64,000 nucleotides of DNA, from positions 928,001 to 992,000 of the forward strand of contig CAXXXD010000002.1 in assembly GCA_963663385.2 (NCBI GenBank). The letters are read 5' to 3'. Position numbers and translations under genes: made by a program. Every line of letters starts with the position of its first letter. The first letter of the stretch is position 1. The stretch comes from Oceanispirochaeta sp. (GTDB lineage: Bacteria > Spirochaetota > Spirochaetia > DSM-2461). Under the pieces are notes generated by a model. The model was not told the DNA's origin and did not search any database. It was given only the letters and a program-made list of their open reading frames with translations. Positions 3,016 to 17,506 of the stretch are shown in pieces.

Positions 3016-4071
3016 ATGAAAAGTTATATATCCGTTATAACTCTGTTCTTCATCCTGCTTTTCATGGAAATACCGCTTCCGTCTGCTGAAATCGAAAGTT
3101 CCGATCTTGATGCCCTTGCCGACTATATCTATTCCCCCATCAGAATAAAAACCGTGCAGCGGGGAAACTTTCAGGGGATTTTAAGGGATGTCAATGAACA
3201 GTGGGTGGAAATTATCGCCCGGGACGGGCAGATCCTTTTAATTGATTATGCATCCATAGAGACCTATGTCCTATTCGATCCGGTTCTGGAGAAGGATACT
3301 TTTTTTCAGGATTCCGCTTCCAACCGTCTGATAGTTATGCCCACTGCCTTTCCCATGGAAACAGGTGAATTTCATGTTGCCAATCAGGAAATCGCCGCTT
3401 TCTCCATGAGTTACGGATTAAATGACAGTGTCTCTTTATGGTCGGGGATCAGTATTCCCGGTCTTCTGCTGAATGCCCGGTACTCCACCGCTCTGTCTTC
3501 GGGTTTTGCCGTTTCATTCGGCTCTTTTGCCGGTTTCTCCTGGTTTGCAGACAGCTTTGATTCGATCCCCGCTGTAATGATTCCCTACGGTATCGCCTCC
3601 TGGGGTGAGGAGAATAATAACTTTACCATTGGGGGCGGTCCCGTATTTCTGTTTAATCAGGAGTGGGATATGCCCGGCTTTGTTCTTGTGGCGGGGGGCA
3701 AAAAAGTTCTGACGTCTACAACATCTTTAGTATTTGAGAACTGGATCTCCTGGGGGCTGCGGGAGGACTTTCATCCGATGAACCCGATCCCTTATACGGA
3801 GGATGACGATGATGATCCTCCGGAAAGCCTCTATGATGAAAAATGGAGCGCCGTTCCGGTTATGATCTTTCCTGCGGTGTGTTTCCGGATTGCCAGTGAA
3901 CGGCTCTCCTGGGATATAGGGATTGTCGTTCCCCTGACCATTACCAATACAGACTATATCCGGGAGGATGACACCCACTACTGGGAAAACGGCGATTTTG
4001 AAATTAACGGGATTGCGGATGATTTTATTATCCCCATTCCCCTTATCAGTGTGACCTACCGGATTGATTGA
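3016..4071 (+). CDS. Exported hypothetical protein, probable outer-membrane beta-barrel
   Basis: GGAGGA SD, signal peptide, alternating amphipathic strands, C-terminal ISVTYRI beta-signal-like motif. Confidence 0.6.
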   Translation: MKSYISVITLFFILLFMEIPLPSAEIESSDLDALADYIYSPIRIKTVQRGNFQGILRDVNEQWVEIIARDGQILLIDYASIETYVLFDPVLEKDTFFQDSASNRLIVMPTAFPMETGEFHVANQEIAAFSMSYGLNDSVSLWSGISIPGLLLNARYSTALSSGFAVSFGSFAGFSWFADSFDSIPAVMIPYGIASWGEENNNFTIGGGPVFLFNQEWDMPGFVLVAGGKKVLTSTTSLVFENWISWGLREDFHPMNPIPYTEDDDDDPPESLYDEKWSAVPVMIFPAVCFRIASERLSWDIGIVVPLTITNTDYIREDDTHYWENGDFEINGIADDFIIPIPLISVTYRID

Positions 4072-4156
4072 GCGCCCTGTTAAACTTCATCATCATATTT
4101 CCATGCCCTGCATTTACCAGTTTCCCGCTATCATAGAGAATCTCGTGCAATTTGAT

Positions 4157-5995
4157 TTATGCATTATTATCAGCAGATAAGATGTATCCTGGAAGTTCAA
4201 TCCTGATCGTAAGACCTCCGCCGGTGTTATTTAACGCTTCGATTAATCCATTGTGTTTTTCTATAATATTATGGCAGATTGCCAGGCCCATTCCCAAATT
4301 CGCTTCTCCTGTTTTTGAACTGAAAAAGGGAAGAAATACTGACTGGAGTTCTTCATCTGCAAGACCCGGTCCATTGTCGCTTACTTTAATAACCACTTTA
4401 CTGTGGTTTTTATCTAAACCGCATTGAACTGTTACAGTTCCTTCTTTCTCGAGGGCTTCAAAACTGTTTTTAATCAGATTCAGGATCAGCTGTTTTATTT
4501 CAAGTTTATCGGCATTGATCAGAATCTCATCATTAACTATATCAATGAGAAGATTGATTTTCCGTTTTCTGGCTTCATATCCAATAAGATTGCAGATGTC
4601 TTTTATAGTCTGACCAAGATCAAATACCTGCACCGTTTCATTCTCTTTTCCAGGTGACAGGGCAACCAGATTCCCGATAATTTTGGATATATCCTCCACT
4701 TCCTCCTCAATACTGACCAGAGAGGCTGCTATTTCATCATTTTTGTTATTAAAGCGTATGTTCTCAAGATAATAGTGGATGATTTCCAATGGATTATTTA
4801 TTTCATGGGCTACTCCTGAAGCCAGCAGCCCTACTGATGCCAGGTTTTCCGAGAGCTGCATCTTTTTTCGGAGTTCTTCATAGGATGTTATATCTTCAAT
4901 AATGATGATGGTTCCTATCAGCTTGCTGCCTTCTCTTACAGGAAACAGAGTAATATTATTCAAGGTTGCCATCTTTTCTGTATAAAGGCGAATATTAAAA
5001 TACTTGTTCTCTTTACCCCTCTTCAGGTCCGGTCTGATCTGCCTGAGAACTTCAGCATTTTCAATTCCCAGAAGGGTCGAGAATCTTGTGGAATCTTCAA
5101 GAGTCTCGCCCTTGGGAAAAAGTTCTGCCGCCTGTTTGTTTACAAGTTTTACTTCTTCATCAGTATTGATAAGGATAAGGTTTACAGGCAGGTCATTCAG
5201 AATTGTTTCATTGAATTTCAGAAGCTCGGTAAATGACTGTCTCGTCAGCTTTTGAAGGCTGTCCGTTATCTGTGTGTAAGCCAGTTTGATTAGTGCTATC
5301 CGGTCTATCTTATCAGCATCTTCCGTTGCAAATACCGAGCCGTTTCTGATAATGGAAACTTTATCGGCAAAGAAGAAAATATCGTCGATCCTGTGGGTTA
5401 TGAAGAGTATCCCCATACCCAGATCTTTCCTTCTGTGCAGAAGGATGTGAATCTTGCGGAGGCTTGCGGCATTCAGTTTTTCCAGCGCCTCGTCAATAAT
5501 CAGAAGAGACGGGTTTTTATACAGTGCTTTTAGAATATCAACCAGGACAAGATCGCTTAGACCCAGTTGTTTTATGGGCTTCGAAAGATCCAGATCAATT
5601 TCCACATCCAGGGATGCCAGAAAATCAATGACTTTCCTTTTCTGTCCTCTTCTTGTCTGCAGAGGAAATACGGAAGATTTTTCATCCAGGATTATGTTTT
5701 CCCAGACTGAAAATTCGGTAACCAGGGGGTTCTGCTGACTGACATAATAGATTCCCAGTTCTCTGGCTTTTTTTCTGCTCAGCTTTGATTCAAACTGTCC
5801 GTTAACGCTGAGATGCCCGCCCTTGGGACTGAAGAAGCCGCTGAGAATATGGGCAATCGTAGATTTCCCGGTCCCATGCTCACCCACAATGGCATGAATT
5901 TCTCCGCAGTTAACTTCAAGGGTCGTATCGTTGAGAACAGGATTCGTTCCGTAATTGTAGCTGACTTTCTGAAGGGTTATTGTTTCAAGCTTCAT
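4157..5995 (-). CDS. Soluble sensor histidine kinase with N-terminal ABC ATPase (RbsA/MglA-type NBD) and PAS domain
   Basis: Walker A GEHGTGKS, Q-loop VSQ, Walker B LLIIDE, H-loop ITHR; PAS (ILNDLPVNLILIN..VN..A); H-box GVAHEINNPL, N-box NLIKNS, DNGPG, FLPFFSSK, GMGL. Confidence 0.9.
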   Translation of the reverse strand: MKLETITLQKVSYNYGTNPVLNDTTLEVNCGEIHAIVGEHGTGKSTIAHILSGFFSPKGGHLSVNGQFESKLSRKKARELGIYYVSQQNPLVTEFSVWENIILDEKSSVFPLQTRRGQKRKVIDFLASLDVEIDLDLSKPIKQLGLSDLVLVDILKALYKNPSLLIIDEALEKLNAASLRKIHILLHRRKDLGMGILFITHRIDDIFFFADKVSIIRNGSVFATEDADKIDRIALIKLAYTQITDSLQKLTRQSFTELLKFNETILNDLPVNLILINTDEEVKLVNKQAAELFPKGETLEDSTRFSTLLGIENAEVLRQIRPDLKRGKENKYFNIRLYTEKMATLNNITLFPVREGSKLIGTIIIIEDITSYEELRKKMQLSENLASVGLLASGVAHEINNPLEIIHYYLENIRFNNKNDEIAASLVSIEEEVEDISKIIGNLVALSPGKENETVQVFDLGQTIKDICNLIGYEARKRKINLLIDIVNDEILINADKLEIKQLILNLIKNSFEALEKEGTVTVQCGLDKNHSKVVIKVSDNGPGLADEELQSVFLPFFSSKTGEANLGMGLAICHNIIEKHNGLIEALNNTGGGLTIRIELPGYILSADNNA

Positions 5996-7317
5996 AGCAG
6001 CCCATGTTTTTCCAGCCGGTTGTAAATCGTTCTTCTGCTGATTTTCAGATACTCAGCAGCTTTTTTTTTGTTGTTGTTGCATGCCCTGAGAGCACCAAGA
6101 AGTTCTTCTTTTTCAAGTTCCTCGGGATTCTCCGAAGAATGTTCAATGGAGGAGTTCTCTCTGCCCGTAAGATAGGGCGGGAGATCCTGTTTTCTTATCA
6201 GTTCATCAGATGACATTGTCATGGCAAAATTGATAACATTTTTTAACTCCCGGATATTACCCGGCCAGAAATAACTGTTAATAATATTCCTGGCTTCCAT
6301 ATCAAAAGCTTTTTCTTCTCCGTAATCCTTCATAAAGTTAGTGATGAGACCTGGAAGATCGTCCTTTCTCTCCCGTAACGGCGGGAGTCGGAATAAGGCC
6401 GTATTCAGTCTGTAATACAGGTCCTCCCGAAACTGTTTTTCTTTGATCAGTTCTTCCAGATCCTTATTGGTGGCTGCAATAAAGCGGACATTTACTTTGA
6501 TAGTCTTATCCCCTCCAAGGCGTCTTATTTCACTGTTCTGCAGAGTTCTCAGAACACGCGCCTGAATCTCAAGGGGCATGTCCCCGATTTCATCCAGAAA
6601 GAGTGTTCCCCCGTCAGCCTGCTCAAATATCCCTTTGTAAAGGGAGTTCGCCCCTGTATAGGCCCCCTTTTCATGGCCGAACAGTTCGTTGTCCAGCAGG
6701 TTCGCCGGGAAAGAGGCACAATTTATTCTATACATTTTACGGGATGCCCTCGGGGAGTGATTATGTACATACTCCGCCATAATCTCTTTTCCCGTTCCGC
6801 TTTCACCGATAAATACCACAGGAAAATCGGTTTCCGCCATTTTATGAATCTTCATCATAAGGCTGTTGATTTGCGGATTCATGGATTGATAAGCGGCTGT
6901 ACGGCGGCTGAGCCTGTTTTTCAGTTCCGCATTTTCGCTGGCTAATCTGGTGGATTGAAGAGCATTTTCGACGACTCTCTGTACACGTGCAAAGGGCAGT
7001 GGTTTCTGCATATAATCCCAGGCTCCCAGTTTGATGGCATCAACAGCTGTTTCTATGCTGGCATAACCCGTCATAATGATGACAGGGACAGCGGAGTCGA
7101 TGCTTTTAATTTTCTTCAGGATATTTATCCCATCTTCATCTTTCAGCCTGAGATCCAGAAGTACGACATCGGCCTGTTTTTCCCGGATATAGGGGAGGGC
7201 TTCTCTGCTGTTCAGAGCAAAATGGGCTTTGTAACCGATATTTTCAAAGTCATGAGCCAGAATGCGACAGAGTTTTTCCTTGTCATCAATGATCAATAAT
7301 GTATAGTTTGTGTGCAT
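5992..7317 (-). CDS. NtrC/AtoC-family sigma54-dependent response regulator
   Basis: REC domain (IIDD, LLDLRL, MTGY, KP), GESGTGKE, ELFGHEKGAYTGA, LFLDEIGDM, FREDLYYRLN, WPGNIREL, Fis-type HTH; stop overlaps the kinase start. Confidence 0.95.
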   Translation of the reverse strand: MHTNYTLLIIDDKEKLCRILAHDFENIGYKAHFALNSREALPYIREKQADVVLLDLRLKDEDGINILKKIKSIDSAVPVIIMTGYASIETAVDAIKLGAWDYMQKPLPFARVQRVVENALQSTRLASENAELKNRLSRRTAAYQSMNPQINSLMMKIHKMAETDFPVVFIGESGTGKEIMAEYVHNHSPRASRKMYRINCASFPANLLDNELFGHEKGAYTGANSLYKGIFEQADGGTLFLDEIGDMPLEIQARVLRTLQNSEIRRLGGDKTIKVNVRFIAATNKDLEELIKEKQFREDLYYRLNTALFRLPPLRERKDDLPGLITNFMKDYGEEKAFDMEARNIINSYFWPGNIRELKNVINFAMTMSSDELIRKQDLPPYLTGRENSSIEHSSENPEELEKEELLGALRACNNNKKKAAEYLKISRRTIYNRLEKHGLL

Positions 7318-7319
7318 GT

Positions 7320-7360
7320 ATGTAAAATTACCCTTTACATAATGTAAACCTGGTGCACAT
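7320..7360. promoter_or_regulatory. Putative upstream activator sequences for the sigma54 activator
   Basis: ATGTAAA-N7-TTTACAT perfect inverted repeat (7320-7340) plus a related ATGT...ACAT element (7342-7360), 100-140 bp upstream of the -24/-12 promoter. Confidence 0.5.
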
Positions 7361-7459
7361 AATAATGCAAGGCTTATTTTGAATATATTACTTTGTGATT
7401 AATTTAAATCCTTGTGGTATAAAATAATAAATCGCATTTTCTTTTATATTTCTGTAAAG

Positions 7460-7475
7460 TGGCATGATCTTTGCA
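7460..7475 (+). promoter_or_regulatory. sigma54 (-24/-12) promoter
   Basis: TGGCATGATCTTTGCA: GG-N10-GC, near consensus, about 50 bp upstream of the binding-protein gene. Confidence 0.85.
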
Positions 7476-7526
7476 ATTTGAATGAGAAAAGCCCCTCAAA
7501 GGGGCAGGACATTCAAAGGAGTTTTT

Positions 7527-8663
7527 ATGAAACGTATTCTAACCAGTTTTATTGTCTTGATGTCGGTAATTCCCATGGGTTTTGCAGCCGGTCAGCAGGA
7601 AAGTGCTGCAGTACCGGAACCTGAAGTTATGGAAGTGGAAGTGCTGCCGGAAGTCAGCGATAGTGATCTGGCTCTTGCAAAGGGACCGAATGGCGAAGCC
7701 GCCGTACGGGCCGCAGAAGTAAAACTGACGGATGCACAGATTCAGAAAGTGAAAGACGGTGAGTATAAGGCCGCTCTTCTATGGGCCGGATCTGGTGAAT
7801 GGTACAATGCCCTCTCAAAAGGAGCGGAGGACGAATTCGCCCGTCTCGGTGTAAAAGTGGTATCCAATGCGGACGCACAGTTCGATCCGGCCAAACAGGC
7901 TACCGACGTTGAAACATGTATGGCTCTGAGGCCGGATGCCATTTTGACTCTTGTTGTTGATCCTGTTTCAGGTGCCCGTGCCTTCAGGCCTGTTGTGGAT
8001 AATGATGTTGTCCTCGTTTTTGCAGATAACGGTGTAGACGGGTATCGGGCGGGAAGCGAATATGTCAATGTTGTCACCGGTGATCATTTCGGTATGGGAC
8101 GTGCTGCGGCAGAACTGATGAATGACGCACTGGACGGAGAAGGCAAGGTAGGATTTATCTACCATGATGCCGATTTCTTTGTCACAAATAACAGAGATTC
8201 AGCATTCAAGAAAGATATTGAAAACAAATACAACGGTATTTCCATCGTTGCTGAAAAAGGATTCTCCGAAGAGAGTGCCACGGAAGAAGTCACGAATGCG
8301 ATGATGACCCAGAATCCGGACATCAACGGAATCTATGTGGCCTGGGATGTGGCGGCGGAAGGTGTTGTTGCAGCCCTTCGTTCAGGCGGATGGAAGGATG
8401 TCAAAGTAATCACTCATGACCTTGGTGCCACCCTGGATCTGGATATAGCACTTAAAGGAAATGTTTACGGTAAAGTGGCTGATGTTCCCTATGATATCGG
8501 AGTCACCATGGCCCGATCCGCCGCTCTTAAACTTTTAGGTGAAGATGTTCCTCCCTTCGTCGTTGTCCCTTATCTGAAGATGACCAGTGACAATATCCGG
8601 GAGGTCTGGAATCAGTCTCTCAGAAAAGATCCCCCCTCCAGTGTTTTGAAGTCTCTGCAGTAA
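7527..8663 (+). CDS. Sugar ABC transporter periplasmic binding protein (RbsB-like, type I PBP)
   Basis: AAGGAG SD, signal peptide FAAGQQE, DAQFDPAKQ..DVE, GIYVAWD. Confidence 0.88.
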   Translation: MKRILTSFIVLMSVIPMGFAAGQQESAAVPEPEVMEVEVLPEVSDSDLALAKGPNGEAAVRAAEVKLTDAQIQKVKDGEYKAALLWAGSGEWYNALSKGAEDEFARLGVKVVSNADAQFDPAKQATDVETCMALRPDAILTLVVDPVSGARAFRPVVDNDVVLVFADNGVDGYRAGSEYVNVVTGDHFGMGRAAAELMNDALDGEGKVGFIYHDADFFVTNNRDSAFKKDIENKYNGISIVAEKGFSEESATEEVTNAMMTQNPDINGIYVAWDVAAEGVVAALRSGGWKDVKVITHDLGATLDLDIALKGNVYGKVADVPYDIGVTMARSAALKLLGEDVPPFVVVPYLKMTSDNIREVWNQSLRKDPPSSVLKSLQ

Positions 8664-8689
8664 TTCTTAAGGCATATTGACAGACAATC

Positions 8690-8717
8690 TGCCGGAGCAG
8701 TTCTAACTGTTCCGGTA
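8690..8717 (+). terminator. Intercistronic stem-loop after the binding-protein gene
   Basis: TGCCGGAGCAGTT / AACTGTTCCGGTA inverted repeat. Confidence 0.5.
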
Positions 8718-8749
8718 TTTGCCGGCCCAGGCCGGAGACAGGAGGATCC

Positions 8750-9715
8750 ATGACAAACATTTTATCTAATAAGGAATCTTTAAAAGATTTTATCCGGCAG
8801 TATATTGTTTATATAAGTTTTGTTTTTCTACTGCTTATTTTCTCCATAATACTATATGACAAAGGTTTTCTTTCTTCAGTGAATCTTATGAATATATTAA
8901 GGCAGACCGCAATGGTGTCTGTTATGGCGGTAGGTATGACTTTTGCCATTTCTGCCGGGGAAATCGACCTTTCCATCGGGGGGACTGTTGCTCTCTCCGC
9001 TCTTATAGCCGCTTTGGTTCTGGAGAGAACAGATGTCGTTATTTTCGCACTTGCCGCTGCGCTGACGACAGGCGGACTTATCGGACTGGTGAATGGTCTC
9101 ATCACGACCAAAGCCAGAATCCCCGCCTTTCTTGTAACTCTGGGAACATCCAGTATCGTTACAGGTCTGGCCCGTTCCATAACAAATCTGGAAGCGGTTC
9201 CCATTATTAACAGGGGCTTTACATTCTTTTTCGGTTCCGGCGATATCGGTCCGGTTTCAACACTGTTTATCTGGACTGCAGTTGTTGCCTGTCTCGGCCA
9301 TATACTGCTTAAACATACCCCATTCGGCAAAGCTGTTCTTGCAACCGGAGGGAACCGGAATGCTGCTCATTACACTGGAATCAAAACAGATTTCACAAGG
9401 CTTATGGTTCTTGTTATCAGCGGTATTTCCGCATCCTCTGCCGGTATCCTTTACGCCGGAAGACTGCATGGCGCCCGTTACACACTGGGAGAAGCAGATG
9501 TGATGACCGTCATTGCCTCTGTCATAATCGGAGGAACCAGTTTTACAGGAGGAAAAGGAACTGCTATCGGAGCCATTATCGGTTCGGTTATTATGGGGAT
9601 GCTGAACAATGCGCTTCTTCTTATGGGGCTTTCTGTTTCAGAGCAGATGATAGCAAGGGGAATCATCATCATTATCGCGGTATCTCTCAGCTTGAGAGAA
9701 GGATCGAGGCATTAA
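8750..9715 (+). CDS. Sugar ABC transporter permease (RbsC family)
   Basis: GEIDLSIG, IPAFLVTLG, FGKAVLATGGN..AA..TGI, IGGTSF.GG.G. Confidence 0.92.
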   Translation: MTNILSNKESLKDFIRQYIVYISFVFLLLIFSIILYDKGFLSSVNLMNILRQTAMVSVMAVGMTFAISAGEIDLSIGGTVALSALIAALVLERTDVVIFALAAALTTGGLIGLVNGLITTKARIPAFLVTLGTSSIVTGLARSITNLEAVPIINRGFTFFFGSGDIGPVSTLFIWTAVVACLGHILLKHTPFGKAVLATGGNRNAAHYTGIKTDFTRLMVLVISGISASSAGILYAGRLHGARYTLGEADVMTVIASVIIGGTSFTGGKGTAIGAIIGSVIMGMLNNALLLMGLSVSEQMIARGIIIIIAVSLSLREGSRH

Positions 9716-9782
9716 TTTTCAGGGACCTTAATGAGAAAATAGCAGGGTTCTGAGAACCCTTGACAGTTTGCAGGAGATAACA

Positions 9783-10976
9783 ATGTTCTTAAATACACTT
9801 ATCAGGAAGAATCCTGAATTTATAAAAGCCGCAGTCACTCTGCATCAGGAAATGAAACTGCCTTCCAACTGCTGTGTCCTTGATCTGGACGCAATAAGAA
9901 AAAACGCCTCTTCTATAAGCAGCAAAGCCCGTTCTCTGGGTATGCAGACATTCGGGATGACAAAGCAGATCGGCCGGCATAAACAAGCCCTAGAGGCAGC
10001 TGTTTCCGGAGGGATAACCAGCTTTGTCACAGTCGATATCAAAGGGTTCCGTTCCCTGAGAAGCAATGGATATAAGATCGGACACACCGGTCATCTGGTA
10101 CAGATCCCTGCAGGGGACATTCCCTATTGCCTGTCTCAAAAGCCGGAGTACTGGACCGTTTTCAATAAGGAAACCTTTACTGTTTTGAATACGGAAGCAC
10201 AGCGGCAGGGGCTGATTCAGAAGGTATTTCTGAGAATTTACGGAAAAAATGATACTTTTTATGAAGGTCACGCGGGAGGCATCCCTGTGGAGGAACTGGA
10301 AAGCACTCTGGACTACCTTTCCGGTCTCAGTTCACTCCGTTTTGCCGGTCTGACAACATTTCCCTGTCTTCTCTATAATCGTGACAGTTCCTCCGTGGAA
10401 AAAACTCATAATCTGAAGACACTCAGTGCGGCGGCCGTACGTCTGCAGAATCTTGGATTAAAGGATTTTGAAGTTAACGCACCGGGAACAACTTCCGGAG
10501 AAATCCTGCCTCTGCTGGCTGAGGAAGGGGTTACTCAGGTTGAGCCGGGTCATGGACTGACCGGCACCACTCCTCTTCATGCAGTAAGGTCCCTTGATGA
10601 GATCCCCGGGGTTCTTTATTTATCGGAAGTGGCTCATCTGCATAAGGGGACACCCTACTTTTATGGCGGCGGTCTGTATATAGATCCTGTTTTCCCTGAT
10701 TACAAACCATCTGCTCTCACATCCGAAAGACCCGGTGATATTCTTAACAGTTCCTATGAGGCACAGATTCCTCCCTATCAGGCCATTGACTATTACGGAA
10801 TGCTGCATGGGGTAAAGGATCACAGTAGTAAAATCGGAGATTCTGTTATCCTCGGATTCCGCCCTCAGGCGTTTGTCCGTACATCCTATGTCGCTTCAAT
10901 AAAAGGGATCAGCAGCGGGAATCCTGAAGTTGCAGGAATTTCGGACTCCAATGGAGGAGCTGTACAGTGGCCGTAA
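9783..10976 (+). CDS. YhfX-family PLP-dependent enzyme (alanine racemase fold)
   Basis: MF...L.RKNP, MTKQIGR (PLP lysine), GHLVQIP, GLT.FPCLL, NAP.TTS, EPGH.LTGT, YGGG, IDYY, FR.Q.F match E. coli YhfX as recalled. Confidence 0.85.
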   Translation: MFLNTLIRKNPEFIKAAVTLHQEMKLPSNCCVLDLDAIRKNASSISSKARSLGMQTFGMTKQIGRHKQALEAAVSGGITSFVTVDIKGFRSLRSNGYKIGHTGHLVQIPAGDIPYCLSQKPEYWTVFNKETFTVLNTEAQRQGLIQKVFLRIYGKNDTFYEGHAGGIPVEELESTLDYLSGLSSLRFAGLTTFPCLLYNRDSSSVEKTHNLKTLSAAAVRLQNLGLKDFEVNAPGTTSGEILPLLAEEGVTQVEPGHGLTGTTPLHAVRSLDEIPGVLYLSEVAHLHKGTPYFYGGGLYIDPVFPDYKPSALTSERPGDILNSSYEAQIPPYQAIDYYGMLHGVKDHSSKIGDSVILGFRPQAFVRTSYVASIKGISSGNPEVAGISDSNGGAVQWP

Positions 10977-12466
10977 AAACAATTCTTGAAATGAATGGGA
11001 TCTGTAAGTCATTCGGTCCGGTAGAAGTCCTTAAGAATATTAATTTCTCCCTGGAGAAGGGGGAAATCGTCGGTTTAGCCGGAGCCAACGGTGCAGGCAA
11101 GTCCACTCTGATGAAAATCCTGAACGGGGTCTATTCCTGTGATTCCGGATCAATTTCTGTTAACGGTAAAAAGGGCGTTTTCAACTCTCCGAGGGAATCA
11201 GCGAAAGCGGGAATCGCCATGGTATTTCAGGATTTCAGTCTGATACCGACTCTGACTGTCTGGGAGAATCTGTTTCTGGCTCATGAACCTCTGAAAAAAA
11301 ACGGCTTGATTGACCGGGAGCTTTGCATCAGAAAATCCAGAGATCTTTTCAGAAAACTTGAAATGGATATTGATCCTGAAATACATCTGGAAAAACTCCC
11401 AGTGGGAAGGCAGCAGATTGTTGAGATTGCCAAAGCACTGAATCACAGTGATGAGGGCGTGTTGATTCTGGATGAGCCTACAGCATCCCTGTCCTGCTCT
11501 GAAATTGAATCCCTTTTTACAATGCTCAGAACACTTAAGAAGCAGGGGCTGTCAATTATAATTGTAACTCATCATCTTCAGGAAATTATGGATCTCTGCG
11601 ACAGGGTCTCGGTATTGCGGGATGGGCAGATTGTGCTCAACTCATCAATTACGGATATAACAGTTGATCATATTGTTGAAGCTTTAGTGGGAGACCAGAT
11701 TGAGCATGTCAACTTTCATTCAGGAAGGAGCCATTCAGATGAAGTTGTCCTTTCTGTCGAAAATCTCGGTATGGATGGTTTCTGGAGTAATCTGTCATTT
11801 GAACTTTGTAAGGGTGAGATCCTGGGAATTGCAGGAGTCCTTGGCAGCGGCAGGACGGAGTTATTAAGTTCGCTTTACGGTCTTATGAAAAACAGTACGG
11901 GTCAGGTTTCTCTGGAAGGAAAGGTTTTTAATCCTGAAAATCCGGCAGATGCTCAGGGTTCGGGGCTTTTTATGATCCCTGAAAACAGGCATCGCCATGG
12001 GATTGTAATGGGAGATTCGGTTTATAATAATATACTGCTTCCAGTCTGGAGGAAGTTGAGTTCCAGGGGATTTCTCAGAAATGACACGGGGTGCAACCTG
12101 GTGCAGTCGCTTATCGAACGTTTGAATATAAAGGTTCAAACTATGGATCAGGATATTGCAAGCCTTTCGGGAGGAAACCAGCAGAAGGCTGTACTCGCCC
12201 GCTGCCTCACGTCTGATTTCTCCGTCCTTCTTCTGGATGAACCCACCATTGGGGTCGATATAGCGTCAAAGAACGAAATTGCTTCCATTATAAGCGATAT
12301 GGCACAGGAAGGCCGCTCGATCATATTAGTCTCTTCCGAACTGGATGAGATGGCCAAAGTCTGTGACAGGGTCCTGCTGCTTAAGAATGGAAGTCTTTCC
12401 GGTGAACTTTCCTATAGAAAAGGTGATGAAATAAGCGAAGACAGTATAATGCGGCTGATTCAGTGA
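10967..12466 (+). CDS. Sugar ABC transporter ATP-binding protein (tandem NBD, RbsA/MglA family)
   Basis: GANGAGKS, LILDEPTASL, second half LSGGNQQK, LLDEPT.GVD. Confidence 0.93.
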   Translation: MAVKTILEMNGICKSFGPVEVLKNINFSLEKGEIVGLAGANGAGKSTLMKILNGVYSCDSGSISVNGKKGVFNSPRESAKAGIAMVFQDFSLIPTLTVWENLFLAHEPLKKNGLIDRELCIRKSRDLFRKLEMDIDPEIHLEKLPVGRQQIVEIAKALNHSDEGVLILDEPTASLSCSEIESLFTMLRTLKKQGLSIIIVTHHLQEIMDLCDRVSVLRDGQIVLNSSITDITVDHIVEALVGDQIEHVNFHSGRSHSDEVVLSVENLGMDGFWSNLSFELCKGEILGIAGVLGSGRTELLSSLYGLMKNSTGQVSLEGKVFNPENPADAQGSGLFMIPENRHRHGIVMGDSVYNNILLPVWRKLSSRGFLRNDTGCNLVQSLIERLNIKVQTMDQDIASLSGGNQQKAVLARCLTSDFSVLLLDEPTIGVDIASKNEIASIISDMAQEGRSIILVSSELDEMAKVCDRVLLLKNGSLSGELSYRKGDEISEDSIMRLIQ

Positions 12467-12470
12467 TTTA

Positions 12471-12506
12471 TTCAGGGGCTGAATATTTTCAGCCCCATAC
12501 CCTGAA
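12471..12506. terminator. Stem-loop between convergent genes
   Basis: GGGGCTGAA-TATT-TTCAGCCCC hairpin (12475-12496). Confidence 0.6.
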
Positions 12507-12563
12507 AACTCCCGGATTTCCGGCAGAAAAACGGCCTGATCTGCGAAAGCTATGGAGGGAGTA

Positions 12564-13745
12564 TTACAGGTCTGCCATCATCTCCGGAACCGACCCTATA
12601 CCAATAGCTTTTATTTCCGGAGTGATTGAAAAATCATGGCTGGTTCGGCTGATAACATAAGATTTTCCAGCCTGGTAGGAGGATGTGGATTTCTCTATTT
12701 CCTTTTTTATCTCTTCAATCATCCGGGTATCTTTTTTATCGGGATTCTCAGTCCATTTACACTCTATCAGGGTCAGCTTTCCACCCGTATCAATAAAGAA
12801 GTCTACCTCCCGGCCGGAGGAGTCTCTATAAAACCAGAAAGCTGGAGCTGCGGTGATGGTTCGTCCGATTTTCCGCAGTTCCGAGAAAACAAAGGTTTCC
12901 CATATCTGCCCTTTAAAGGGAGAAGAGGAAATATCAGTCTCCTTTATTCCCAGAAGAAAGCAGAGCAGTCCTGAATCACAGAAGTAAAACTTAGGGGATT
13001 TAATCACACGTTTTGAAAAATTCTGAAACCATGGTTCCAGAAGTGATATCTGATTAGATGCTTCGAGGACATTAAGCCAATCTCCTGCCGCTTTAACAGA
13101 AATACCCGTATCTCTTGCTACTTCTGATTTATTCAGAATCTGTCCGCTCCGGGGCGCCAGAACCCTGAGAAAACGTTCAAAATCTCTGAGGCTTCCCACA
13201 TTGAGGATCTGGCGGACATCCCTTTCAAGATAAGTGGCCAGGTATGAGCTGATAAAGGGGAGGGCAGGCATCTCCTGCTGTCTCCACAATTCCGGGTATT
13301 GTCCACGGGTTATGATTTTTTCCAGAAGCACTTTATCGGTGATTTCCCGGAAACTCAGATTCTCCAATTCAATAATGACCGAACGTCCGGCCAGGCTTTC
13401 GGATACTTCTTTCATCAGTGTAAACTTCTGGCTGCCTGTCAGGATATAAGATCCCATTTTATGTCTGTTCTGGTCTATTCTGTTTTTTAAGTGCCGGAAT
13501 AGTCCGGGGGCATACTGAACTTCATCAATTATAAGGGGCTCTTTGTATTGATTGAAGAACTCCTCCGGATTTTGCTCCGCCTGTTCCGCCAGGCTGGGTA
13601 GATCGAGGGATACGTAATTATATTGGGGAAAGAGCCGTTGCAGCATTGTCGTTTTACCTGATTGCCTGGCTCCGGTAAGAATTAAAACAGGAAAAAACTG
13701 ACACAGCTCTCTGATTTTTTCAGAATAAATCCTTTTGTAATACAT
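12564..13745 (-). CDS. AAA+ ATPase (AAA_14) with DUF4143 / PD-(D/E)xK-like C-terminus
   Basis: GARQSGKT, LIIDEVQ, LTGS, GQYP, KSPKFYFCDSGL, EVDF...IECK. Confidence 0.88.
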   Translation of the reverse strand: MYYKRIYSEKIRELCQFFPVLILTGARQSGKTTMLQRLFPQYNYVSLDLPSLAEQAEQNPEEFFNQYKEPLIIDEVQYAPGLFRHLKNRIDQNRHKMGSYILTGSQKFTLMKEVSESLAGRSVIIELENLSFREITDKVLLEKIITRGQYPELWRQQEMPALPFISSYLATYLERDVRQILNVGSLRDFERFLRVLAPRSGQILNKSEVARDTGISVKAAGDWLNVLEASNQISLLEPWFQNFSKRVIKSPKFYFCDSGLLCFLLGIKETDISSSPFKGQIWETFVFSELRKIGRTITAAPAFWFYRDSSGREVDFFIDTGGKLTLIECKWTENPDKKDTRMIEEIKKEIEKSTSSYQAGKSYVISRTSHDFSITPEIKAIGIGSVPEMMADL

Positions 13746-13753
13746 AATAAACA

Positions 13754-13793
13754 ATTTTAACTTTCAAAGTTAATATTGTCAACTTTCAAAGTT
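13754..13793 (-). promoter_or_regulatory. sigma70 promoter of the AAA+/DUF4143 gene with two palindromic operators
   Basis: TTGACA(13782-13777)-N17-TAAAAT(13759-13754); TTAACTTTCAAAGTTAA (13757-13773) and AACTTTCAAAGTT (13781-13793). Confidence 0.7.
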
Positions 13794-13884: not shown

Positions 13885-15534
13885 ATGGATTTTCAGGCCA
13901 GGTTACGAAAAGAATTCATGGTTTTCTCTATAAAACTGATTTTCGCTATTGTATTTCTCTTCACATCTGTAACGGTCATTGTCAATCTGATAAATAACAA
14001 TATCAATAAAACTCATAGTATCGAATTTGTAAACGAGTCTTTTATGAACTTAACTGATAAAATTGCCATGCAGATAAGTTTACACAATTCTGATGATGAT
14101 TACATTAATGCCATACAGAAGAACCATGTCAGCAGCAAACTTGTTTCAAGCACCGACTATTCATTTTCCCGGACCATAAGTGTCCGGTATAATTACGATA
14201 TTTATGATATGAATACAGATCCCGTATATCAGGAATCCTATCATCTGTTCCCTCAATACAAAATATATCTGAATATAATCAGAGACCGGATTAGAAATAA
14301 CTCCCCTGTAAAGTTTATTTTATATCCGAGCTTCAAAACCCGAACGGCTATTCTTATATATTACGGCGGATTATACAAAGATACGGAACTTATCGGGTTT
14401 GATATGTATTCGATTGAAATCAGTGACCTGGATAATGCTTTATTACCCAATACCGGTGACTATGTTATAACTGATCGATTCGGCGGTATTATCGCAACAA
14501 ACAATTTCAAGCTGTTGGAGAACAGCCTGGATTTTGAATATGCCCCGGGATATACGATTGATGCTGTTAAATATCATGTTACCAGAGTCGAAAAGGATTT
14601 CTATTCTATTTACTCCCTTGAGGAAAACATCAGTTTAAGCAGATCCTATGTAATTGTTTTCTCTGCATTGTTCCTGATAGTACTTGCTGTAGTAGCAATC
14701 TCTAATAGGATTATTAAAAAGATTGCCAGAGAAAATGCCCGGAGCGTCGAGTCTATCATATCCGATACAAACACCGTATCAATGGGGCATCTGGATCATA
14801 GAATCAATGAAAACCTTGATGATGACTTCAGGAGTCTGGCAATCAACGTAAACGAGATGTTAGATAAATTGAATTACGAAATTACCTTGAATAAAGAGTT
14901 AAGTGAAACGAATATCATCTTCGAAAAAAGAAAACTCGATGCTCAATTCAATCCTCATTTTTTATATAATTCTCTGGAAACAATTCGCTATTCAATGCAG
15001 TTTGATATTAAAGGGACTGAACAGTACATTTTAGACTTAACTGCTATTTTGAGGTACTCAATATCCAATGATATCAGTTATTCATCAGTGGAAAACGATC
15101 TGATATATATAAGAAAGTATTTAGAGCTGCATAAATTCCGATTTTCTGATAAACTAACGTATTCCATAACAGCATCAGATGAGATGAAGGGTGTTTTAGT
15201 TCCCAAACTTGCTCTGCAGCCTCTGATAAGCAACAGTATCAAATACGGCTTTACCGATAGTTTATCAGTAAGAATAGATATCACCACGGAAGTAATCGAT
15301 GAAGTCTGTTATATAAAAGTACGCGATAATGGAGTCAGTATTACAGATGAAGTCATAGACGAAATTAATAAAACCTGCAAACAGAAAAAGAACCCTACAA
15401 ACCACATAGGCGTTCATAACGTTTTAAGACGATTTATGATCCTTTATCCCGATGCCGTGCTGAATGTCTGGCGCGATGACGAGGGAACTGTCTTTCAAAT
15501 AAGTTTTAAAAACAGGTTGGTCGCAAATGTATAA
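13885..15534 (+). CDS. YesM/LytS-type sensor histidine kinase
   Basis: Two TM segments, HAMP, LDAQFNPHFLYNSLETI, LQPLISNSIKYG, DNG, HIGVHNV. Confidence 0.9.
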   Translation: MDFQARLRKEFMVFSIKLIFAIVFLFTSVTVIVNLINNNINKTHSIEFVNESFMNLTDKIAMQISLHNSDDDYINAIQKNHVSSKLVSSTDYSFSRTISVRYNYDIYDMNTDPVYQESYHLFPQYKIYLNIIRDRIRNNSPVKFILYPSFKTRTAILIYYGGLYKDTELIGFDMYSIEISDLDNALLPNTGDYVITDRFGGIIATNNFKLLENSLDFEYAPGYTIDAVKYHVTRVEKDFYSIYSLEENISLSRSYVIVFSALFLIVLAVVAISNRIIKKIARENARSVESIISDTNTVSMGHLDHRINENLDDDFRSLAINVNEMLDKLNYEITLNKELSETNIIFEKRKLDAQFNPHFLYNSLETIRYSMQFDIKGTEQYILDLTAILRYSISNDISYSSVENDLIYIRKYLELHKFRFSDKLTYSITASDEMKGVLVPKLALQPLISNSIKYGFTDSLSVRIDITTEVIDEVCYIKVRDNGVSITDEVIDEINKTCKQKKNPTNHIGVHNVLRRFMILYPDAVLNVWRDDEGTVFQISFKNRLVANV

Positions 15535-16285
15535 TGTGATTATTTGTGAAGATGAAGATATCATTCGAAAGGGACTGATTTTCAGCTTTGACTTTCATAG
15601 CCTGAATTTAAAAGTTATAGCAGATTTTGATAATCCCGTTTCCTGTTTAGAGTTTTTAGAGAGTAATTCCGCAGATATCATTATTACTGATATAAAAATG
15701 CCGCTTATGAGCGGACTGGAAATGATCAGCAGGATCGAAAATAAAAGAAAATATGAATTTATCATTTTAAGCGGTCATAGTGATTTTGAGTATGCAAAGA
15801 AAGCGATTACCTACGGAGTTACAGAATATCTGGTTAAACCTTTGGATTATCAGTTACTGGCGGTTTCATTAAAAAAAGCAATTGCAAATCTTAACGATAA
15901 AAACCTTTTAAACAATACTAAATCTCAAATTATAGACTTATCTGAAGTGTACACAGATATACAGAATGAAGACCCTCTGTTTCAATCGATTATTTCATTT
16001 ATAAAGGATAATTATATGCATAAGATTGTATTGGATGACGTTGCGAACGAACTGAACTATAGTGTCTCTTCTATAAAAAACAAATTGAAAGAGCATGATC
16101 TGACATTCAACACAACCCTTAATCGCTACAGAATTTATAAGTCTATCCATTTTATGAAGCTGGATGAATTGCCCATATATAAAATCGCGAAGATGGTCGG
16201 TTTCAGCGACTATAAGTATTTTTGTACAAAATTTAAGAACTATACCGGATTTTCTGTAACTGAATTAGCACAAAAAAAACAATAA
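15527..16285 (+). CDS. YesN-type response regulator (REC + AraC HTH)
   Basis: EDE, ITDIKMP, ILSG..DFEYA, YLVKP; IAKMVGFSDYKYF. Confidence 0.92.
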   Translation: MYNVIICEDEDIIRKGLIFSFDFHSLNLKVIADFDNPVSCLEFLESNSADIIITDIKMPLMSGLEMISRIENKRKYEFIILSGHSDFEYAKKAITYGVTEYLVKPLDYQLLAVSLKKAIANLNDKNLLNNTKSQIIDLSEVYTDIQNEDPLFQSIISFIKDNYMHKIVLDDVANELNYSVSSIKNKLKEHDLTFNTTLNRYRIYKSIHFMKLDELPIYKIAKMVGFSDYKYFCTKFKNYTGFSVTELAQKKQ

Positions 16286-16391
16286 TTACTCTGTTTTGTC
16301 TTTTTTTCATCCAAAGTCTGCCTTTTCGTGGTATATCGCGCTGTAAATACCGGTGATAATATTAATTATCACTTTATAAAGGAAGGTAGAA

Positions 16392-17441
16392 ATGAAAAGA
16401 GTATTAATCATGGCTATGGCAGTTTTTATGCTGGTAAGCTTCAATGTAGTTGCCTCCGGGGCTCAGGATTCCAATGACGCCGGCGGAGCACAGGAAGAAA
16501 AAAAACTGGTTGTGTATTCTCCCAACTCCGAGGGGCTTCTCAATGCTGTAGAAAAGCCGTTTGAAGAGAAATACGGTATTGAAGTAGAGATTATTTCAGC
16601 TGGTACCGGTGAATGCCTGAAGCGTATCGAATCTGAAAAACATGACCCCCAGGGGGATGTTATGTACGGCGGTAGCTATGCAACCATCCTGGCTCAAAGA
16701 GACCTGTGGGAAGACTATGTCAGTAAAAATGATTCTAAACTGATTGAAGCGTTTCGGAATGAGAGCGGATATGTAACCAAGAACACCCTTGACGGAAGCG
16801 TTATTGTTATAAACAAAACAAAACTGGCAGAAAAACTGCCTGGTGTTACCATTACCGGTTACAAAGATATTATCAAATATGGGCCTCAGCTGGAAGGTCA
16901 GATCGTTTCCGGCGACCCTGCAAAATCATCAAGTTCCTTTGCTCATCTGACTAATATGCTGATTGACTTCGGCGGCTATGAAGATGACGCAGCCTGGGCT
17001 ACAGTAACTGATATATTCAAAAACCTGAAAGTTCTTGGTTCCAGTTCCGCAGTCTGGAAGGGTGTAAGAGACGGTGAATATACCATCGGTCTTTCCTATG
17101 AGGATCCCTGTCTGACACTGATCAACGACGGCGCCGATGTAGAGGTTGTTTATATGGAAGAAGGCGTTGTATTCCTGCCCGCCGGTTGTGCCATCATCAA
17201 GGGCGCCAAGCATCCGGAAGCCGCAAAACTGTTCATGGACTTTGTTACTTCCAAGGAAGTTCAGGATGTATATGGTATGACCCTGACCAACAGACCTGTA
17301 TATGAAGGTGTACAGACAGCAGATTACATGAAACCGATTGATCAGATCAATGTAAAGATTGAGGACACAGCTTATATTTCTGCTAATAAACAGAAGATTG
17401 TAGACCGTTATATTGAAATGTTTACAAGCCTGGAAAACTAA
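16392..17441 (+). CDS. ABC substrate-binding protein, Fe3+/sugar-phosphate (AfuA/BitB-like) family
   Basis: Signal peptide, LVVYSPN, AGTGE...RI..E..P.GDV.YGG, DPAKSSS, GLSYED, AAKLF.DF..S. Confidence 0.82.
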   Translation: MKRVLIMAMAVFMLVSFNVVASGAQDSNDAGGAQEEKKLVVYSPNSEGLLNAVEKPFEEKYGIEVEIISAGTGECLKRIESEKHDPQGDVMYGGSYATILAQRDLWEDYVSKNDSKLIEAFRNESGYVTKNTLDGSVIVINKTKLAEKLPGVTITGYKDIIKYGPQLEGQIVSGDPAKSSSSFAHLTNMLIDFGGYEDDAAWATVTDIFKNLKVLGSSSAVWKGVRDGEYTIGLSYEDPCLTLINDGADVEVVYMEEGVVFLPAGCAIIKGAKHPEAAKLFMDFVTSKEVQDVYGMTLTNRPVYEGVQTADYMKPIDQINVKIEDTAYISANKQKIVDRYIEMFTSLEN

Positions 17442-17453
17442 TAGAACTGTCAT

Positions 17454-17487
17454 TCACCTGAAGAAGACCATTACTTTCTTCAGGTGA
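17454..17487 (+). terminator. Intercistronic stem-loop
   Basis: TCACCTGAAGAA / TTCTTCAGGTGA 12-bp perfect inverted repeat. Confidence 0.6.
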
Positions 17488-17506
17488 GTATTTAATGAGG
17501 AAAAGT

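Follow-up and report, generated by a model that had tools for sequence, protein, structure and literature searches.

A family of histidine kinases carrying an ABC-importer nucleotide-binding domain, encoded beside sigma-54 regulators and importers in Spirochaetota and KSB3 bacteria

Introduction

What does a histidine kinase sense when its N-terminal domain is the ATP motor of a transporter? This question is raised by a gene in a 64,000-nucleotide stretch of DNA from Oceanispirochaeta sp. (contig CAXXXD010000002.1, positions 928,001 to 992,000), which is referred to below as the window. The encoded protein combines the nucleotide-binding domain (NBD) of an ATP-binding cassette (ABC) transporter with a PAS domain and a histidine kinase core. 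The gene is accompanied by genes for a sigma-54-dependent response regulator and an ABC importer.

Two-component kinases are thought to sense via their own ligand-binding domains or via separate partner proteins. In this case, the ATP motor domain of a transporter appears as the input of the kinase, in a large family that is always accompanied by a sigma-54 regulator and almost always by a matching importer. Transporter-coupled two-component sensing is already known, and the transporter NBD as a kinase input domain is a new variation of it. An earlier note, made from the sequence of the window, knew of no characterised kinase with the order NBD-PAS-HisKA-HATPase. The full-text literature likewise yielded no account of a kinase that uses an ABC NBD as its input, in a search that did not extend to subscription journals and bioRxiv supplements.

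The reading developed here is that this kinase is the sensor in a sigma-54 two-component system linked to a transporter, with the NBD physically coupled to the importer. The chances that this reading is correct are judged to be about even.

Domain architecture of the kinase

The kinase is encoded by a single intact open reading frame (ORF) of 612 codons, which sits where the earlier note had placed it and is read on the minus strand (Table 1). Pfam assigns ABC_tran to residues 21-171 (3e-19), a weak PAS_9 match to residues 274-370, HisKA to residues 390-447 (9.4e-8), and HATPase_c to residues 496-602 (2e-20). In NCBIfam, residues 6-244 align with the first half of the CUT2 ATPases LsrA, YtfR, AraG, AlsA, XylG, MglA, and RbsA, while the best alignment of residues 209-602 is AtoS (4.8e-59). 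The CUT2 equivalog scores of 98-138 bits are far under the NCBIfam cut-offs of 586-850. The AtoS equivalog (NF008468) also fails, with 200.3 bits against a cut-off of 646 and a match confined to residues 209-602. Thus, no curated family model covers the kinase.

An AlphaFold2 model built from 144 homologues has a mean predicted local distance difference test (pLDDT) score of 89. It is composed of the NBD (residues 1-240), a linker of low confidence (241-250), the PAS domain (251-368), the dimerisation and histidine phosphotransfer domain (DHp, 370-444), and the catalytic and ATP-binding domain (CA, 456-602). In Foldseek, the structures matching the N-terminal 240 residues are ABC NBDs, LptB and a LivF-like protein among them, whereas those matching the C-terminal 370 are PAS-kinases that include YF1 (4gcz, 372 columns). 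None of the Foldseek matches listed joins an ABC NBD and a histidine kinase in one structure. Pfam, NCBIfam, and the model thus bear out the domain order read in the earlier note.

The kinase core is complete. The H-box AHEINNPL with H397 is invariant in the 144 sequences of the family alignment, and the two DHp helices span residues 370-416 and 420-444 in the model. The CA domain has the N, G1, F, and G2 boxes. In these, N510, D540, G542, G544, G568, and G570 are invariant, and N506, F554, and F557 are found in at least 90% of the sequences. The protein is a member of the HisKA kinases, with all features of that class. No transmembrane segment was found in it by hydropathy: the maximum 19-residue Kyte-Doolittle value is 1.47 and no stretch exceeds 1.6, a level exceeded by 46 such stretches in the neighbouring permease. 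A complete core in a protein without membrane segments had also been proposed in the earlier note, and both points are confirmed.

The domains differ in their conservation. By the mean pairwise proportion of differing residues (p-distance), the PAS domain (0.65) is more divergent than the NBD (0.59) and the kinase core (0.54). The junction between NBD and PAS runs from the post-NBD helix (DKIxLIKLAYTQ) via a variable, low-pLDDT linker of about ten residues to the N-cap helix of the PAS domain (EFxxLLKYNEAILxxLP). Both helices are among the best conserved parts of the family, with Y240 of the former in 134 of the 144 sequences and P270 of the latter in 138.

Integrity of the fusion

An artefact was considered as an explanation, either two genes fused by an assembly error or a frameshift, or a pseudogene. 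Single contigs from the three public runs X1, X2, and X6 cover window positions 4000-7400 with 0 gaps and cross the join without an indel. The contigs of X1 and X2 are near-identical to the window and may stem from the source DNA itself, and that of X6 differs by 10 substitutions.

The architecture is also conserved throughout the family. In a protein search by word index, 7999 candidates were scored and 1716 relatives were found at E<=1e-3. Nearly all of the 120 matches listed are about 600 residues long and carry PF00005, HisKA, and HATPase_c; three are shorter fragments. The named relatives among them belong to Oceanispirochaeta (81% identity), other Spirochaetales, and KSB3/Vecturithrix. 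Their public names are generic, namely "ATP-binding protein", "ATP-binding cassette domain-containing protein", and "histidine kinase". An exhaustive search of representatives clustered at 50% identity extended this domain-architecture survey: at least 130 of the best 150 clusters match over the full length in a single stretch and are of the NBD-PAS-kinase type. The one-piece architecture is kept from 82% to 25% identity across hundreds of homologues. A domain check of five distant or long members identified ABC_tran and HATPase_c in all five and HisKA in four. Nothing was found in favour of an artefact. Given the indel-free spanning contigs, the family-wide architecture, and the intact catalytic boxes, misassembly, frameshift, and pseudogene were rejected, and the probability left to them is negligible.

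In one relative (locus L122), the homologue at 9016-10464 (-) is shortened to 482 residues, with an in-frame TGA within the match, and the neighbouring ATPase at 12285-13701 (+) is broken into two ORFs of 304 and 189 residues. This is possibly a decaying cassette or the result of sequencing errors.

A conserved cassette with a sigma-54 regulator and an importer

The genomic linkage of the kinase was surveyed for 47 family genes, comprising 5 from the Oceanispirochaeta genome itself, 22 others of Spirochaetota type, and 20 from KSB3. All 47 NBD-kinase genes directly follow a gene for a sigma-54 NtrC-type regulator, and for 45 of them a BPD_transp_2-type ABC importer with its own ATPase is encoded no more than about 9 kb away. 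The earlier note had made its interpretation depend on the linkage of homologues to CUT2-type transporters, and this linkage held. That a cassette of regulator, NBD-kinase, and BPD_transp_2 importer is conserved in two phyla, with several copies per genome, is strongly supported.

The 5.3-Mb Oceanispirochaeta genome encodes five NBD-kinases, all of which follow a sigma-54 regulator and stand beside a complete importer. Each of these importers combines a two-NBD ATPase with one or two BPD_transp_2 permeases and a binding protein of the Peripla_BP_4, Peripla_BP_1, or Bmp type. The genome is rich in ABC proteins: 142 ORFs of at least 200 residues match an NBD, and 42 of these have two NBD hits at a length of 400-599 residues. 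Among 400 other genomes of the phylum, at least 12 contain an NBD-kinase (E<=1e-60); the search scored no more than three candidates in each genome and so undercounts. The other Spirochaetota-type set comprises 21 loci with 22 kinase genes. The regulator is adjacent in all 22 cases and transporter genes are present in 21; one locus (L124) has a single-NBD ATPase.

In KSB3, seven of nine genomes carry the NBD-kinase in two to six copies each. The 19 new loci contain 20 genes (locus L144 repeats L004), with the regulator adjacent in all 20 and a CUT2-type importer in 18. Locus L148 has a Liv-type (HAAT) importer 2.5-7 kb away, which consists of Peripla_BP_6, two BPD_transp_2 proteins, and a LivG-like protein. 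In this locus, where the NBD-kinase pair and its surroundings were noted at 5828-8800 (-) and 14863-19456 (+), a gene for a 990-residue REC + PPDK_N protein follows.

Further scans delimit the family. Of 80 loci kept from a scan of a genome collection, 6 (L001-L004, L006, L009) encode a complete NBD-kinase; the remaining 74, ordinary kinases picked up by a generic H-box pattern, were set aside. A metagenome scan with the 851-residue variant P0185 returned ten loci that match only the NBD of this variant (residues 5-246), mostly over about 1.4 kb, and were taken for ordinary two-NBD ATPases. Two ESM Atlas clusters, mostly from Actinomycetota, serve as a lead. One combines ABC_tran, GAF_2, and HisKA (852 residues, 166 members) and the other ABC_tran, HisKA, and HATPase_c (826 residues, 64 members), both with a feature score of 0.84. 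The use of an NBD as input may thus be a wider theme in which GAF can replace PAS.

In the window, the stop of the regulator gene overlaps the start of the kinase gene by 4 nt, and their assignment to one operon is strongly supported. The regulator has a Sigma54_activat domain (7.3e-66), and its best NCBIfam alignments are AtoC and NtrC. The genes for the binding protein, permease, YhfX-like protein, and ATPase form an importer operon that is divergent from the regulator-kinase operon. Between the two operons lies a -24/-12 promoter, the only match to TGGCAY-N5-TTGCW in the 64-kb window, where 0.10 are expected by chance. The genome contains rpoN (Sigma54_DBD, 190 bits). With an enhancer-binding regulator, a -24/-12 promoter, and rpoN, the locus has all the features of an NtrBC-type sigma-54 system, as judged from sequence.

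Consensus sigma-54 sites are rare: only 26 occur in the whole 5.3-Mb genome, of which four are at NBD-kinase loci, and the fifth such locus has a one-mismatch site that was read by eye. Across the survey, a TGG[CT]A[CT]-N5-TTGC[AT] site precedes the transporter operon in 29 of 47 cases. This frequency, set against the genome-wide rarity, indicates that the regulator drives the importer operon, and the divergent sigma-54 promoter of the adjoining operon is its well-supported predicted target. About 115-140 nt upstream of the promoter lie two palindromes, which are candidate regulator sites and may serve in this role.

Origin and motifs of the NBD

The NBD motifs named in the earlier note were all found at the places claimed, including the post-NBD helix. 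They are Walker A (GEHGTGKS, residues 38-45), the Q-loop (Q87), a degenerate signature (LGLSD, residues 144-148), Walker B (LIIDE, residues 165-169), an altered D-loop (ALEKL, residues 170-174), the H-loop (ITH, residues 199-201), and the post-NBD helix DKIDRIALIKLAY (residues 228-240). In the 144 sequences, G38 is conserved in 141, K44 and D168 in 139 each, E169 in 130, Q87 in 113, and H201 in 99. The LSGGQ signature is absent. Its Ser position is Ser in 32 of the 144 sequences, and its second Gly is replaced by Ser in 65, Ala in 18, and Pro in 14. The corresponding segment of the family is L-x-L-S-[DE]-[RQK]. The D-loop DEPTxxL(D) is likewise lost, as the kinases have DEALEKL(S/T/N) where both NBD1 and NBD2 of the cognate ATPases have DEPT.

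A consensus comparison revealed that the cognate CUT2 ATPases are asymmetric. The catalytic residues reside in NBD1, whose signature is weak. The signature of NBD2 is a perfect LSGGNQQK, whereas its Walker A (GxGRT), Q-loop (E), and H-loop (S) are degenerate. By its motifs, the kinase NBD looks like an exaggerated NBD1. The kinase as a whole falls outside the class of CUT2 transporter ATPases, since it has a single NBD followed by a PAS-kinase and not two tandem NBDs in about 500 residues.

Trees of 94-95 NBDs are in line with this relationship. They included 27 kinase NBDs, NBD1 and NBD2 of 30 two-NBD ATPases (22 neighbours of NBD-kinases and 8 others from the Oceanispirochaeta genome), and 7-8 single-NBD outgroups. 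All 27 kinase NBDs form one clade (FastTree support 98, IQ-TREE SH-aLRT 97), which joins the 30 NBD1 sequences apart from the 30 NBD2 sequences (SH-aLRT 95). Whether this clade is sister to NBD1 or nested within it has a support of 18 in the tree. Descent of the kinase NBD from NBD1 of CUT2 (ribose-type) importer ATPases is strongly supported by these sequence comparisons, which bear out the CUT2-type assignment of the earlier note. Since the kinase NBDs form one clade and are not nested among the neighbouring ATPases, the fusion appears to be old and single. The proposal that a PAS-kinase replaced NBD2 is compatible with the tree.

A recent copy of the neighbour's NBD1 was considered as a source and rejected. 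The kinase NBD is 30% identical to NBD1 and 23% to NBD2 of the neighbouring ATPase, compared with 37-39% to the NBDs of two paralogous kinases, and the kinase NBDs are monophyletic.

The loss of the signature and the D-loop would also fit an NBD that is a structural relic without a nucleotide cycle. Alternatively, the NBD could be an effector that acts on the transporter by inhibition, or by competition for the permease as feedback. Such an action has a parallel in KdpD, whose N-terminal ATP-using domain acts on its own transporter KdpFABC, as described in an excerpt of PMC11018627. A relic is at odds with the strong purifying selection on K44, D168, and E169 (130-139 of 144 sequences), and an effector leaves the input sensed by the kinase unexplained. 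Both are considered very improbable.

Proposed coupling of the NBD to the importer

As the NBD-kinase is almost always found beside an importer, it probably reads the transporter and not a free signal molecule. In the proposed mechanism, the kinase would be a soluble dimer of the HisKA type with the NBD as its transporter-facing input module. The two NBDs of the dimer would engage the cytoplasmic face of the cognate importer, either docked on the permease dimer like transporter NBDs or paired with NBD2 of the ATPase. ATP-dependent closing and opening of the NBDs would follow the state of the transporter, i.e., docking of the loaded binding protein or transport cycles. This motion would be passed via the post-NBD helix and the PAS N-cap helix to the DHp bundle, and the DHp movement would shift the balance between kinase and phosphatase activity, leading to induction of the importer.

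Docking was modelled with two copies of the permease (61-row alignment), NBD residues 1-245 (144-row alignment), and three controls. No sequence relative of the permease was found in the PDB. The complex of permease dimer and NBD scored 0.59, compared with 0.00 for the best control, with a verdict of weak support. At least 93% of contacts are shared between the runs, and the partner has a pLDDT of at least 80. In the calibration of this score, 116 of 157 solved complexes and 2 of 215 mismatched pairs passed the mark. Only 18 of the 157 passed with a value of 0.60 or less, a range that also contained both passing mismatches. Docking on the RbsC-type permease, as suggested in the earlier note, is a possibility to which the model lends weak support, and covariation points at least equally to NBD2 of the ATPase.

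This covariation was analysed in a mirror-tree test with p-distance matrices from 34 complete cassettes, of which 26 were left after dropping kinases more than 75% identical. With the kinase core controlled, NBD distances correlate with those of the permease (r=0.36, p=0.005), NBD2 (r=0.41, p=0.002), and NBD1 (r=0.28) of the transporter. Distances of the kinase core and the PAS domain do not track the transporter in the 26 cassettes (PAS r=0.00 to 0.10). Kinase core and regulator, which served as a positive control, are correlated at r=0.68 after controlling for the NBD. When further controls (kinase core and other transporter parts) are applied, the NBD2 signal stays at r=0.24-0.32 (p about 0.01), whereas the permease signal decreases to r=0.16 (p about 0.08-0.10) and that of NBD1 to r=0.02.

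These values bear on a different explanation, in which the kinase NBD pairs with NBD2 of the cognate ATPase, forms a composite ATP site, and reports the ATPase cycle, i.e., flux. The half-sites are complementary, as the kinase NBD has Walker A and B, the Glu, and the Q- and H-loops, and NBD2 has LSGGNQQK. The covariation is strongest with NBD2 and survives the controls for kinase core, NBD1, and permease. There is also an analogy with BceS, which reports the activity of BceAB. Such pairing faces structural obstacles: NBD2 is covalently bound to its own NBD1, which would have to be displaced, and two NBDs per kinase dimer meet a single NBD2 per ATPase. Furthermore, L124 has a single-NBD ATPase and L148 an ATPase of LivG type. 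The sample of 26 sets is small, its distance matrices correlate with one another (0.47-0.62), and the Mantel test inflates the p-values. This explanation is regarded as improbable.

Several observations weigh against an NBD that is physically coupled to the importer. The model might place any ABC NBD on the permease. The variable, low-confidence linker of ten residues between NBD and PAS would be a poor mechanical transmitter, and the loss of the LSGGQ signature and the D-loop makes a canonical ATP-sandwich homodimer doubtful. The covariation is modest and the evidence from it mixed. Mantel p-values are inflated because the sequences are related, and the NBD keeps a correlation of r=0.29 with the regulator under the same kinase-core control. 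The covariation between NBD and permease sits in the RecA-like core (r=0.29-0.38) and not in the helical sub-domain (residues 86-160, r=-0.15 to 0.14), so that the groove for the coupling helix is not singled out; this location was given no weight either way. Next to the fifth paralogue (L094) stands an importer that shares 60-66% identity with KSB3 importers, but the NBDs of the paired kinases share only 31-33%, equal to the median of all pairs. Co-adaptation of NBD and transporter is thus not general. Every complete locus keeps a full ATPase, and the kinase NBD is therefore not needed for transport and would have to compete or coexist with it. In addition, 2 of the 47 genes (L121 and L145) have no ABC transporter within about 9 kb. 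The reading also gives no account of how each of the five paralogues in the Oceanispirochaeta genome would recognise its own importer, given roughly 40 two-NBD ABC systems there.

The two orphan loci have distinct surroundings. In L121 (11155-16132, +), the kinase-regulator pair is followed by genes for LacI, an FGGY kinase, a class II aldolase, and L-arabinose isomerase (araB/araD/araA-type). The pair in L145 sits between EF-Tu/NusG and Nuo51-like genes.

Some of these points would be accommodated by a sensor of cytoplasmic ligands. In this case, the PAS domain would bind the imported substrate or a catabolite, and the NBD, away from the transporter, would act as an ATP/ADP-dependent dimerisation and energy-state switch. 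The linkage to CUT2 transporters would merely reflect the regulon and the evolutionary source of the domain. The PAS domain directly precedes DHp, as in ligand- or light-regulated kinases, in agreement with the fold match to YF1. It is also the most variable part of the protein, as expected if paralogues bind different ligands. The ATP-binding residues are conserved, the orphan loci work without a nearby transporter, and all transporters retain their own ATPase. However, the PAS domains of the L094/KSB3 pairs are only 11-17% identical, at or under the median of 17%, although their transporters are near-orthologous (permeases 60-66%). PAS distances are uncorrelated with the transporter, whereas NBD distances are correlated. 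Energy sensing gives no reason for the pairing with BPD_transp_2 importers in 45 of 47 genes or for several paralogues. Moreover, 113 of 144 sequences retain the Q-loop, through which an NBD contacts the membrane domains. Sensing of a cytoplasmic ligand is accordingly held to be rather unlikely.

Physical coupling to the importer thus remains the preferred reading. In its most far-reaching form, which is considered possible though somewhat doubtful, some of the permease dimers would carry the kinase dimer in place of the ATPase. The result would be a signalling complex, made up of binding protein, permease, and (NBD-kinase)2, in which a soluble kinase receives an extracellular signal across the membrane by means of a borrowed importer. 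In this complex, the ABC power-stroke would run in reverse, with nothing transported.

Organisation of the locus

The features of the locus are compiled in Table 1.

Table 1. Coordinates of the NBD-kinase, its parts, and the adjoining genes and sites in the window.
Feature	Position	Strand	Basis
NBD-PAS-HisKA-HATPase_c sensor histidine kinase, 612 residues, soluble	4157..5995	-	ORF, Pfam, NCBIfam, AlphaFold2 model, hydropathy
ABC NBD, CUT2 NBD1 type, residues 1-240 (K44, Q87, D168/E169, H201; no LSGGQ)	5276..5995	-	Pfam, NCBIfam, alignments, trees
Conserved junction, residues 229-270	5186..5311	-	alignments, model
PAS domain, residues 251-368, least conserved part of the family	4892..5245	-	Pfam, alignment, model
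Kinase core, DHp residues 370-444 and CA residues 456-602	4190..4888	-	invariant columns, YF1 (4gcz) fold match
Sigma-54-dependent response regulator (REC, AAA+ Sigma54_activat, HTH_8)	5992..7317	-	Pfam, NCBIfam, ORF coordinates
Candidate regulator-binding palindromes TATGTAAA-N7-TTTACATA and TTTACAT-A-ATGTAAA	7319..7348		inverted repeats I4, I6
Sigma-54 (-24/-12) promoter TGGCAT-N5-TTGCA	7460..7475	+	pattern match
Periplasmic sugar-type binding protein (Peripla_BP_4)	7527..8663	+	Pfam
RbsC-like permease (BPD_transp_2)	8750..9715	+	Pfam, NCBIfam
YhfX-like PLP-fold protein (Ala_racemase_N + YhfX-like_C), within the importer operon	9768..10976	+	Pfam
Complete two-NBD CUT2 ATPase (RbsA/AraG/XylG-like), 499 residues	10967..12466	+	Pfam, NCBIfam

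The ORF of the binding protein as listed starts at 7482, only 6 nt past the promoter. The ATG at 7527 is preceded by the ribosome-binding site AAGGAG. Given the position of the promoter, the start is likely the ATG at 7527 and not that at 7482. With 64-74% identity to proteins in Chloroflexota and Thermoanaerobacterales records, the permease is far more conserved than the kinase. The YhfX-like gene overlaps the start of the ATPase gene by 10 nt.

Directly downstream of the kinase, on the opposite strand, lies an ORF of 351 residues (3016-4071, +) with an N-terminal hydrophobic leader, an Asp-rich stretch, and no Pfam match. Positions 111-2832 encode a PfkB-type sugar kinase, a KDPG/KHG aldolase, and a divergent IclR regulator, which constitute a catabolic set for keto-deoxy-sugar acids. 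The listed start of the aldolase ORF is probably too far upstream, as the Pfam match begins at residue 46.

On the other side of the importer operon, a gene for an AAA_14 + DUF4143 ATPase (12564-13754, -) is located between two transporter systems. The second of these, at 13885-20222 (+), is a conventional transporter-linked two-component system with a membrane His_kinase (PF06580) sensor and a REC-AraC regulator. These are followed by genes for an SBP_bac_8 binding protein, a TOBE-type ATPase, and a fused BPD_transp_1 permease.

Implications of an NBD as the proposed kinase input

If the NBD plugs into the importer, extracellular nutrients or transport flux could be sensed from inside the cell in a simple and testable manner. 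The kinase would then be a natural model for the conversion of ABC NBD closure into a non-transport signal. A complex of binding protein, permease, and (NBD-kinase)2, if it exists, would represent a new class of transmembrane receptor derived from an ABC importer and a transporter-derived input domain. Such wiring could explain how sugar-scavenging spirochaetes and KSB3 bacteria connect dozens of importers to individual regulators. The parts are small and soluble or well-behaved, and are thus open to biochemistry and cryo-EM.

Comparison with known systems

The closest comparison for the NBD itself is NBD1 of the CUT2 ATPases. Both share the GE(N/H)GAGKS Walker A, the Q-loop with a VAENI segment, Walker B with the catalytic Glu, the H-loop, and the post-NBD helix. 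Unlike these ATPases, the kinase has one NBD, with a PAS-kinase in place of NBD2. The signature LSvGxQQ of CUT2 NBD1 has become L-x-L-S-[DE]-[RQK] in the kinase, and the D-loop DEPTxxL has become DEALEKL.

On the side of the kinase core, the resemblance is to NtrB/AtoS with NtrC/AtoC, which share the PAS domain directly before DHp and the output via a sigma-54 promoter. NtrB and AtoS lack an NBD, unlike the NBD-kinase. AtoS sits in the membrane and has a periplasmic domain, and NtrB is under the control of PII.

PhoU is an adaptor between PstB and PhoR. In PhoR-PhoU-PstSCAB and in DctA/DcuB-DcuS, the state of a transporter is relayed to a PAS histidine kinase, as outlined in an excerpt of PMC6978683, which is similar to the relay proposed here. 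These systems consist of separate proteins, with no transporter domain fused to the kinase.

The BceRS-BceAB modules of Firmicutes offer a further parallel. According to excerpts of PMC8534201 and PMC6978683, their kinase, which lacks its own sensing domain, depends on an ABC transporter and switches on the operon encoding it, a mode termed transporter-activity sensing. The NBD-kinase would likewise be a transporter-coupled kinase that induces the operon of that transporter. As far as these excerpts describe it, BceS is an intramembrane-sensing kinase, a separate protein that touches the permease BceB in the membrane, and it works with an exporter-type transporter and an OmpR-type regulator. 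The NBD-kinase differs in being soluble, in its covalently attached transporter NBD, in its association with binding-protein-dependent importers, and in its sigma-54 activator. It thus falls outside the Bce-type class, whose kinases have two transmembrane helices and whose BceAB-type transporters have a large extracellular domain, as hydropathy reveals no transmembrane helices and Pfam identifies the partner as a binding-protein-dependent BPD_transp_2 importer.

KdpD is similar in that a histidine kinase has an extra N-terminal nucleotide-using domain that deals with the transporter under its control (excerpt of PMC11018627). In that account, the N-terminal domain is not an ABC NBD but an atypical serine kinase acting on KdpB; KdpD is membrane-anchored, and its pump is a P-type ATPase.

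Finally, the 5TMR (LytS/YpdA-type) kinases also use a part of an ABC-type transporter as kinase input, following a "transceptor" logic. Their membrane domain has the fold of an ECF S-component, as reported in an excerpt of PMC11109136. These kinases recruited the substrate-binding membrane subunit, with no partner transporter implied in that excerpt, whereas the NBD-kinases recruited the ATPase motor.

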